From the IMG/VR virus record IMGVR_UViG_3300012000_000008, positions 1 to 64,000 of that record: a DNA stretch of 64,000 nucleotides; one strand, 5' to 3'. The position numbers were made by a program, and so were the translations under genes. The notes under the pieces are model-generated. The model had not been told where the DNA came from. It saw nothing but the letters and a program-made list of their open reading frames with translations, and searched no databases. This document shows positions 48,254 through 48,707 of this stretch, piece after piece. Position 1 is the first letter of the stretch; every line of letters starts with the position of its first letter. The DNA comes from a virus.

Positions 48254-48657
48254 GGGCCAGTACATGGAATCGATTGAACTGTGGAATTCATGGACGCAAG
48301 CACTGGGGCATGCCAGTATAAAATAGCAAACAAAATTAAATGCCGAAGATACCTTCGACATGGCCATGAGTCTGGAACAGGCTGATGCAATTCTTGCTCA
48401 GCATGGCTTTGTAGACTCAGAAGCTGAACTCGAGTTAGTTTAACTCGATCGTCTTGTTGTAGATTGAGATTGGTAAAACAAGGCGTGTTACAAATCTCTG
48501 ACTTGGTGTGTTGTGATGGTTATCTGCCAAGCGTATAAAACTATCATATGAAATGCGTTTAGCTTGGTTGCATGCATTTTGAATTTTAACCAAGATAAGC
48601 TTGTAGAGTCAATGAATGAAATTGTTCAAGACGTGGGTTCAAATCCCACCTGGTCCA
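48254..48657 (+). ncRNA. ssrA: tmRNA
   Basis: Acceptor GGGCCAG/CTGGTCC-A with G3-U70; 5' GGAATCGA; T-arm GTGGG-TTCAAAT-CCCAC; helix-2 pairings TTGAAC/GTTCAA and GCAAGC/GCTTGT; tag ORF 48342-48443 after AATTAAAT, with the stop codon in a hairpin. Confidence 0.93.
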
Positions 48658-48707
48658 CATGAAAATATATGTGTTGATAAATGCTTGCAATGCATTATAA
48701 TAATAAT

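Follow-up and report, generated by a model that had tools for sequence, protein, structure and literature searches.

Why would a bacteriophage carry a ribosome-rescue RNA of its own, and could the peptide that such an RNA adds to truncated proteins say anything besides "degrade me"? The usual picture of trans-translation couples rescue to destruction, the product being marked with a short tag that ends in Ala-Ala. Both questions are raised by a clade of large, uncultured phages that possess their own tmRNA, whose tag is three times as long as usual and conserved residue by residue. The DNA analyzed here (the window) comprises the opening 64 kb of an IMG/VR virus record of 90.7 kb (IMGVR_UViG_3300012000_000008; CheckV completeness 42%), in which an initial annotation had described a phage tmRNA with a 33-codon acidic tag ending in ELV. 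We asked whether this RNA is functional, whether the whole tag is translated, and what the tag might do.

An uncultured T4-like phage carries a one-piece tmRNA

The carrier of the tmRNA is an uncultured T4-like giant phage (a myophage). The window holds T4-type genes for a clamp loader, a baseplate wedge and tail fibres, and complete relatives of the phage have genomes of about 200-230 kb (217-230 kb measured). Its nearest cultured phages are only 41% identical in the clamp loader, and no psbA gene was found in the phage, which indicates that it is not a typical cyanophage. The tmRNA gene sits in a gap free of open reading frames, with an endolysin-like gene on one side and a sulfotransferase-like gene on the other; the nearest tRNA gene (45843-45917) is 2.3 kb away and the main tRNA cluster (44.2-44.7 kb) 3.5 kb away. 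That nearest tRNA gene is a sixth one, scored at 52.7 bits by Rfam and absent from the ARAGORN output. The G+C content of the window is very uneven. It is 0.25-0.33 over 1-40 kb, with the minimum at 28-40 kb; in the region of the tRNAs, the tmRNA and sugar-modification genes (44-56 kb) it rises to 0.39-0.41.

The reading of this locus as a phage tmRNA held up. Rfam calls a full-length one-piece tmRNA (RF00023) on the plus strand at 48254-48660 (92.1 bits, E = 1.6e-34, model positions 1-374; gathering score 47), and the mature molecule, supported by this match and by compensatory changes, extends from the 5' G to the discriminator A at 48254-48657. The two kinds of program proposed for checking the claim gave different answers: the Rfam model recovers the gene, whereas ARAGORN reports five tRNAs and no tmRNA in the window. 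The intact alanine acceptor that had been claimed is confirmed by direct reading. Its 5' strand (48254-48260) pairs with 48650-48656 in a 7-bp stem, the G3-U70 pair is formed by 48256 and 48654, and the discriminator is A48657. CCA is not encoded in the window's branch of the family, CAT following the discriminator instead; a sister branch, described below, does encode CCA. In the window's branch CCA would have to be supplied post-transcriptionally, as happens with many tRNA genes.

Further elements of the tmRNA fold lie on the same strand. The stem of the PK1 hairpin (CTGG/CCAG, 48303-48316) aligns to PK1 of the Rfam model, and the T-arm of the tRNA-like domain is placed by the same alignment at 48633-48649 (48633-48637 pairing with 48645-48649). 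Helix 5 is a hairpin with an 8-pair stem at 48430-48448, and the stop codon of the tag (TAA, 48441-48443) falls within its 3' arm, as the annotation had noted. The predicted fold of the RNA is better than that of 100 out of 100 shuffled sequences (z = -3.66).

A family of long-tag tmRNAs in two branches

Relatives were reached through the clamp loader, which led to 80 related viral loci. Fifty of their records were scanned for tmRNA and nine contained a full-length one, most of the records without a tmRNA being small fragments. Six of these nine synteny-derived tmRNAs are of the ELV type and three belong to the sister branch. A blastn search with the tmRNA against 50,697 phage records gave no match, nor did an exact 23-nt pattern from its 3' end against viral contigs. 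A 20-nt tag pattern, on the other hand, retrieved 25 viral contigs with a tmRNA, each of which has a 33-codon tag ending in LELV, and an amino-acid-degenerate tag pattern retrieved 96 tmRNA tags among the 100 metagenome matches listed. These 96 tags represent some 50 distinct peptides; 89 end in LELV, six in LELVY and one in ELVS. The stop keeps its position in 89 and is shifted one codon downstream in seven. Those seven (within L194-L293) are one residue longer, so that the terminal valine is not always last. Across the 100 listed matches, the four that are not tags included, the stop codon is TAA in 78, TAG in 19 and TGA in three. The tag peptide is conserved in at least about 120 related phage and metagenome sequences.

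The sister branch (e.g. L082, L090 and L132-L169) belongs to the same phage clade, with clamp loaders 63-68% identical and the same tmRNA architecture. A pattern for this branch retrieved 38 viral contigs, whose tags have 32-34 residues (32-35 codons when the synteny-derived members are included). Tags of both branches share an AEDN start and a D-A-(I/L)-L-A core. Their ends differ: among 36 complete sister-branch tags, 30 end in LAA, three in AAV, two in EAA and one in LAV, and this branch encodes CCA, whereas the window's branch has 33 codons, ends in LELV and leaves CCA unencoded. Since the sister tags mostly end in LAA within the same clade, the ELV end is a derived variant.

The initial annotation had allowed that the host tmRNA might carry a similar tag. 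This finds no support, as the exact peptide motif of the ELV-branch core had no match in 185,579 bacterial and archaeal species represented by one genome each. The core of the sister branch had a single match in this collection, in a 1407-bp fragment (L171, RFNV01000365.1) of a Lake Lanier metagenome-assembled genome labeled "Proteobacteria". This fragment holds a tmRNA, a tRNA-Asp gene and an AT-rich open reading frame. The nearest relatives of the Lake Lanier genome lack any one-piece tmRNA, and the fragment is therefore read as mis-binned phage DNA; we rejected it as a clue to the host, a binning artefact being likely, but it does indicate a freshwater source for the clade. In the collections searched, the long-tag tmRNA family was found only on phage DNA.

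The failure of ARAGORN is not peculiar to the window. The program overlooked the tmRNA in nine of the ten sequences tested, namely the window and eight of nine relatives (L082-L090), and in the ninth relative (L089) it placed the start of the tag 25 codons too late, giving eight residues ending in LELV. Two phage surveys, one of them a tmRNA census, annotate tmRNA with this program (PMC7162821, PMC9004378). Given nine failures and one mis-set tag in ten sequences, the family is probably under-counted in surveys that depend on ARAGORN.

Compensatory changes maintain the structure

In the acceptor stem, positions 4-7 change on both strands among the relatives and the G-U at position 3 is retained. 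An alignment of 23 full-length tmRNA genes, examined with RNAalifold for compensatory changes, has such changes in 34 of 86 predicted pairs, and the covarying pairs span P2, the PK1 hairpin, helix 5, three downstream helices and the T-arm. In the PK1 stem (columns 50-53/60-63), C-G is replaced by U-A in three sequences and U-A by C-G in 11; three of the five T-stem pairs have compensatory changes. Helix 5 overlaps the end of the tag. Here the synonymous changes GAG to GAA and CTC to CTT are matched in the 3' arm (columns 183/197 in five sequences and 180/200 in two), which argues that both the peptide and the hairpin are maintained. Inside the tag frame none of the predicted pairs covaries, as is expected of coding sequence.

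Judged from this comparative evidence, we consider it established that the window encodes a functional phage tmRNA in which every structural element of a tmRNA is kept by compensatory changes. One might nevertheless suspect a decaying or non-functional relic of a tmRNA acquired from a host, given that ARAGORN is blind to the window's gene and that Rfam scores it at 92 bits, compared with 175-195 for typical bacterial tmRNAs. A relic, however, is at odds with conservation accompanied by compensatory changes over at least some 120 phage and metagenome sequences, and the search of the species collection turned up no bacterial source sequence. We regard this explanation as barely conceivable.

The entire 33-codon frame is maintained as a peptide

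From a resume codon GCC at 48342-48344, the tag frame runs for 33 codons to 48440 on the plus strand and is closed by the TAA at 48441-48443. Its translation is AEDTFDMAMSLEQADAILAQHGFVDSEAELELV, which reproduces the residues and stop quoted in the initial annotation; it contains nine acidic and no basic residues and finishes in LELV, so that the tag indeed ends in ELV instead of Ala-Ala. A usual tmRNA tag has about 10 codons and ends in Ala-Ala, and this one, with 33 residues, is about three times as long.

The resume codon had earlier been inferred from context, and several observations now place it at 48342. In the Rfam alignment the stretch around this position falls on the consensus resume region, at a high posterior probability. 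It is preceded by U at -5 and A at -4 (48337-48338, by direct reading), and A stands at -4 in every tmRNA tag context that we recovered. In E. coli tmRNA the corresponding U85 and A86 set the frame, A86 being nearly universal (PMC2481249). Both alternative frames carry stops in all relatives, which excludes another resume frame, a possibility that the annotation had named as fatal to its reading. Finally, substitutions within the frame are of the coding type, starting with its first codons.

This last point deserves some care, since most family members were retrieved with patterns derived from the tag itself; the subset found by synteny alone is for this reason given separately. The homologous GCC and 33-codon frame are kept in six of the nine synteny-derived tmRNAs as well as in the window. 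In these seven sequences, an unbiased subset, dN/dS is 0.20 (0.15 for codons 1-25), and variable sites are distributed over the three codon positions as 6:5:15 (3:4:14 for codons 1-25). Over 22 unique sequences dN/dS is 0.18, or 0.24 without the codons fixed by the search pattern, and variable sites are again most frequent at third positions (10:7:21). The tag region is also the most conserved part of the RNA, with a mean column identity of 0.90 compared with 0.82 elsewhere. The low dN/dS and the codon-position pattern show that selection acts on the peptide encoded by the full 33-codon frame, as would be expected if translation resumes at GCC 48342. The last codons may owe part of their conservation to helix 5, where the synonymous, compensated changes also argue for selection on the peptide. 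Such purifying selection on the whole peptide argues for a sequence-specific role beyond release of the ribosome.

The same data bear on the idea that the tag is in fact shorter, with translation resuming at an internal alanine codon and the upstream codons serving as untranslated RNA. The ARAGORN call on L089, with its eight residues ending in LELV, would be of this kind. Yet the dN/dS of 0.15 and the 3:4:14 distribution fall precisely in codons 1-25, the Rfam alignment and the A at -4 put the resume codon at 48342, and the upstream codon stretch contains no compensatory pair. We judge this reading highly improbable; whether a shorter tag or a dead gene is proposed, either is very unlikely.

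As to the shape of the peptide, the initial annotation had proposed an amphipathic helix. A helix is indeed predicted: run on 30 aligned tags, AlphaFold2 places a single short one at residues 11-20 and is moderately confident of it (mean pLDDT 68). Its amphipathic character is doubtful, the helical hydrophobic moment within residues 11-20 being low (0.18-0.28) and the maximum (0.38) lying at the N-terminus. A strongly amphipathic helix is thus not supported.

A conserved leader precedes the gene

A candidate sigma-70-like promoter (TTGATT, 17 nt, TATAAT; 10 of 12 consensus positions matched in a scan) lies on the plus strand at 48204-48232, about 20 nt 5' of the mature tmRNA end. At this site relatives have either a comparable -10 box or a tRNA-Met gene immediately upstream. 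In several of them (L084, L086, L089, L103, L120 and L121) about 12 nt separate the end of the tRNA-Met gene from the tmRNA. Where tRNA-Met is adjacent, the tmRNA and the tRNA cluster probably share a transcript; in the window, by contrast, the tmRNA stands behind its own promoter-like site.

Between this site and the gene, directly 5' of the tmRNA on the same strand, lies the motif GTTCTTTGACA (48239-48249). It, or a near-identical motif, occupies this place in nearly all of the 23 relatives, with variants that include GTTCATTAACA and GATCTTTGATA, and it is kept both behind a promoter-like site and behind a tRNA-Met gene. The window contains a single exact copy. A copy with one mismatch is found at 44271-44281, ahead of another, unassigned small RNA that follows tRNA-Glu. 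The leader motif may be a processing or transcription-start signal for stable RNAs of the phage.

Tagging would depend on host factors

Neither the window's record nor relatives of 77-100% completeness (three at 91-100%, the others at 77% and 88%) yielded an SmpB gene. ClpP, Tsp-type, Lon and FtsH domains were likewise absent from the window's record and from four relatives that are 88-100% complete. With neither SmpB nor protease genes of its own, the phage must rely on host factors to charge and deliver the tmRNA and for any proteolysis. The idea that the phage itself encodes a protease or adaptor that reads the tag was rejected, ClpP, Tsp, Lon, FtsH and SmpB all being absent. As a separate observation, one sister-branch phage whose tag ends in LAA (record G019) encodes a 705-aa ClpC-like class I Hsp100 ATPase (L294:202-2319) with AAA, AAA_lid_9, UVR, AAA_2 and ClpB_D2-small domains. 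No ClpP accompanies it in G019, and two complete ELV-branch genomes contain no counterpart.

These features can be assembled into a working account. The tmRNA would be transcribed from its own promoter or within a tRNA cluster, trimmed, and completed by a CCA-adding enzyme. Host AlaRS would charge it with alanine by way of G3-U70, and host SmpB and EF-Tu would bind it. In the infected cell it could then enter ribosomes that have stalled on broken or cleaved mRNAs and resume translation at GCC, adding the 33-residue acidic peptide ending in LELV before the ribosome is freed at UAA. The tag may then act as a degradation signal for a host AAA+ protease, with LELV substituting for LAA and the conserved core around the predicted helix serving as an adaptor or enhancer site. 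There is a parallel in E. coli, where the N-terminal half of the tag serves SspB and ClpX reads L-A-A. We think it reasonably likely that this account, a functional one-piece phage tmRNA with host-dependent tagging as proposed, is correct.

What becomes of the tagged proteins?

Within this account, our inference that the tag is still a degron is about evenly balanced. The mostly LAA ends of the sister tags and the nearly invariant, hydrophobic LELV end favor a signal that is altered but still degradative. Against a degradative role, glutamate in third-last and valine in last position differ from the L-A-A that ClpX reads, the extra residue beyond LELV in seven of the 96 listed tags fits poorly with strict reading of a free C-terminal carboxylate, and a plain degron has no need of a long conserved acidic body. 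For the fate of tagged proteins we favor an altered degradation signal as most likely. The tag probably does more than an ordinary degradation tag.

The claim that the tag lacks the canonical degron accordingly needs qualification. It is literally true, Ala-Ala being absent, but the C-terminus remains hydrophobic, the sister tags end in LAA, LAV, AAV or EAA, and Val-ended variants of ssrA are degraded: in enterobacteria the AAV and ASV variants are still ClpXP-dependent degrons, only slower (PMC11003136). Indeed, the last residue of a tmRNA tag is hydrophobic in nearly all cases (PMC4131195).

A different possibility is that the ELV tag is not a degron at all and that ribosomes are rescued without destruction of the product, or that the tag is a functional peptide in its own right. 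The acidic peptide might help truncated products stay in solution or label them for a specific phage or host partner; it might also sequester, inactivate or relocate fragments that arise when host defenses cleave mRNA or tRNA. Purifying selection along all 33 codons, far beyond the needs of a C-terminal degron, speaks for such a role, as do the missing Ala-Ala end, the minority of tags extended by one residue past LELV, the large set of tRNA genes on the phage, and the recurrence of long acidic tags in the unrelated phages Bxz1 and Wildcat, which suggests a phage-specific need. However, the sister branch combines the same long acidic body mostly with a canonical LAA, so that the body can coexist with a degron, and the C-terminal LELV is both nearly invariant and hydrophobic. 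Moreover, comparing the tag with the proteins of the 90.7-kb record revealed nothing similar (best E 3.7). Mimicry of a phage protein was rejected as well, since the one open reading frame ending in KELV looks like chance. Rescue without destruction seems to us possible but rather unlikely. We hold to about the same minority view the more specific proposal that the long acidic tag is a phage-specific peptide with a dedicated partner, which neutralizes, solubilizes or redirects the truncated proteins that accumulate when mRNAs or tRNAs are cut by host defenses.

The tag might instead matter less than the RNA that carries it. As a competitor or decoy, the phage tmRNA could displace host tmRNA from SmpB or from stalled ribosomes, or it could flood a host protease or adaptor with high-affinity substrates, so that phage proteins are protected or a host response that depends on trans-translation is blunted. 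The phage lacks an SmpB of its own and must share that of the host, the tag is unlike every bacterial tag in the species collection, and a molecule of mycobacteriophage DS6A consisting only of a tRNA-like domain may titrate SmpB (Hudson et al., PMC4131195). A pure competitor, however, would have no use for a conserved 33-codon peptide, an intact helix 5 and four maintained helices of the pseudoknot region, all of which the family keeps, and we consider competition improbable. An altered but degradative tag, attached with the help of host factors, remains our preferred reading.

Comparison with known tmRNAs

The window's tmRNA resembles canonical one-piece SsrA (RF00023) in its G3-U70 acceptor, T-arm, long P2 and PK1, in the A at -4 before an alanine resume codon, in a stop codon within helix 5 and in the downstream pseudoknot helices. 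It differs in being encoded by a phage without SmpB, in having 33 codons instead of about 10, in its strongly acidic tag, in ending in LELV rather than Ala-Ala, in leaving CCA unencoded, and in escaping ARAGORN.

Phage tmRNAs have been listed since the genome of Bxz1 (PMC4131195), and a 2022 survey reports tmRNA in 2.3% of phage genomes (PMC9004378). Supplementary Table S1 of that survey (Buchholz et al.) names the phages with tmRNA and gives no tag sequences (PMC9004378). Our literature search for an analysis of long acidic phage tags or of the LV end found none. Short tags occur in Enterococcus phage EFDG1, a 595-kb uncultured phage and Cellulophaga phage phi14:2, and phage G has a tag of 13 residues (PMC12484599).

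The tmRNAs of marine pelagimyophages and phage Melnitz (Buchholz et al. 2022, PMC9004378) belong, like that of the window, to T4-like phages of aquatic bacteria. They are circularly permuted, two-piece molecules related to those of alphaproteobacteria, some with a glutamine riboswitch (PMC9004378), whereas the window's tmRNA is in one piece and has no bacterial counterpart in the species collection. For the Melnitz and pelagimyophage tmRNAs the question of function has also been raised, in terms of maintaining translation or of selective tagging (PMC9004378).

A precedent is found in the Bxz1 group and Wildcat, whose one-piece tmRNAs are likewise phage-borne, lie in tRNA clusters and have long acidic tags (PMC4131195). 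ARAGORN, applied to the published genomes of these mycobacteriophages, gives an acidic tag of 25 residues ending in ALV for Bxz1 (ATDTDATVTDAEIEAFFAEEAAALV) and an acidic tag of 22 residues ending in VAA for Wildcat. These phages are of another lineage and infect another host phylum; their tags are shorter and have another core, and no nucleotide similarity to the window's tmRNA is detectable. The likeness of the tags is thus probably convergent. Still, there is precedent in unrelated phages for long acidic tags (Bxz1 and Wildcat) and for an LV end (the ALV of Bxz1). If the proposal of a phage-specific peptide with a dedicated partner were true, the long acidic tags of this clade, Bxz1 and Wildcat would represent a shared and so far undescribed phage strategy, the re-purposing of trans-translation.
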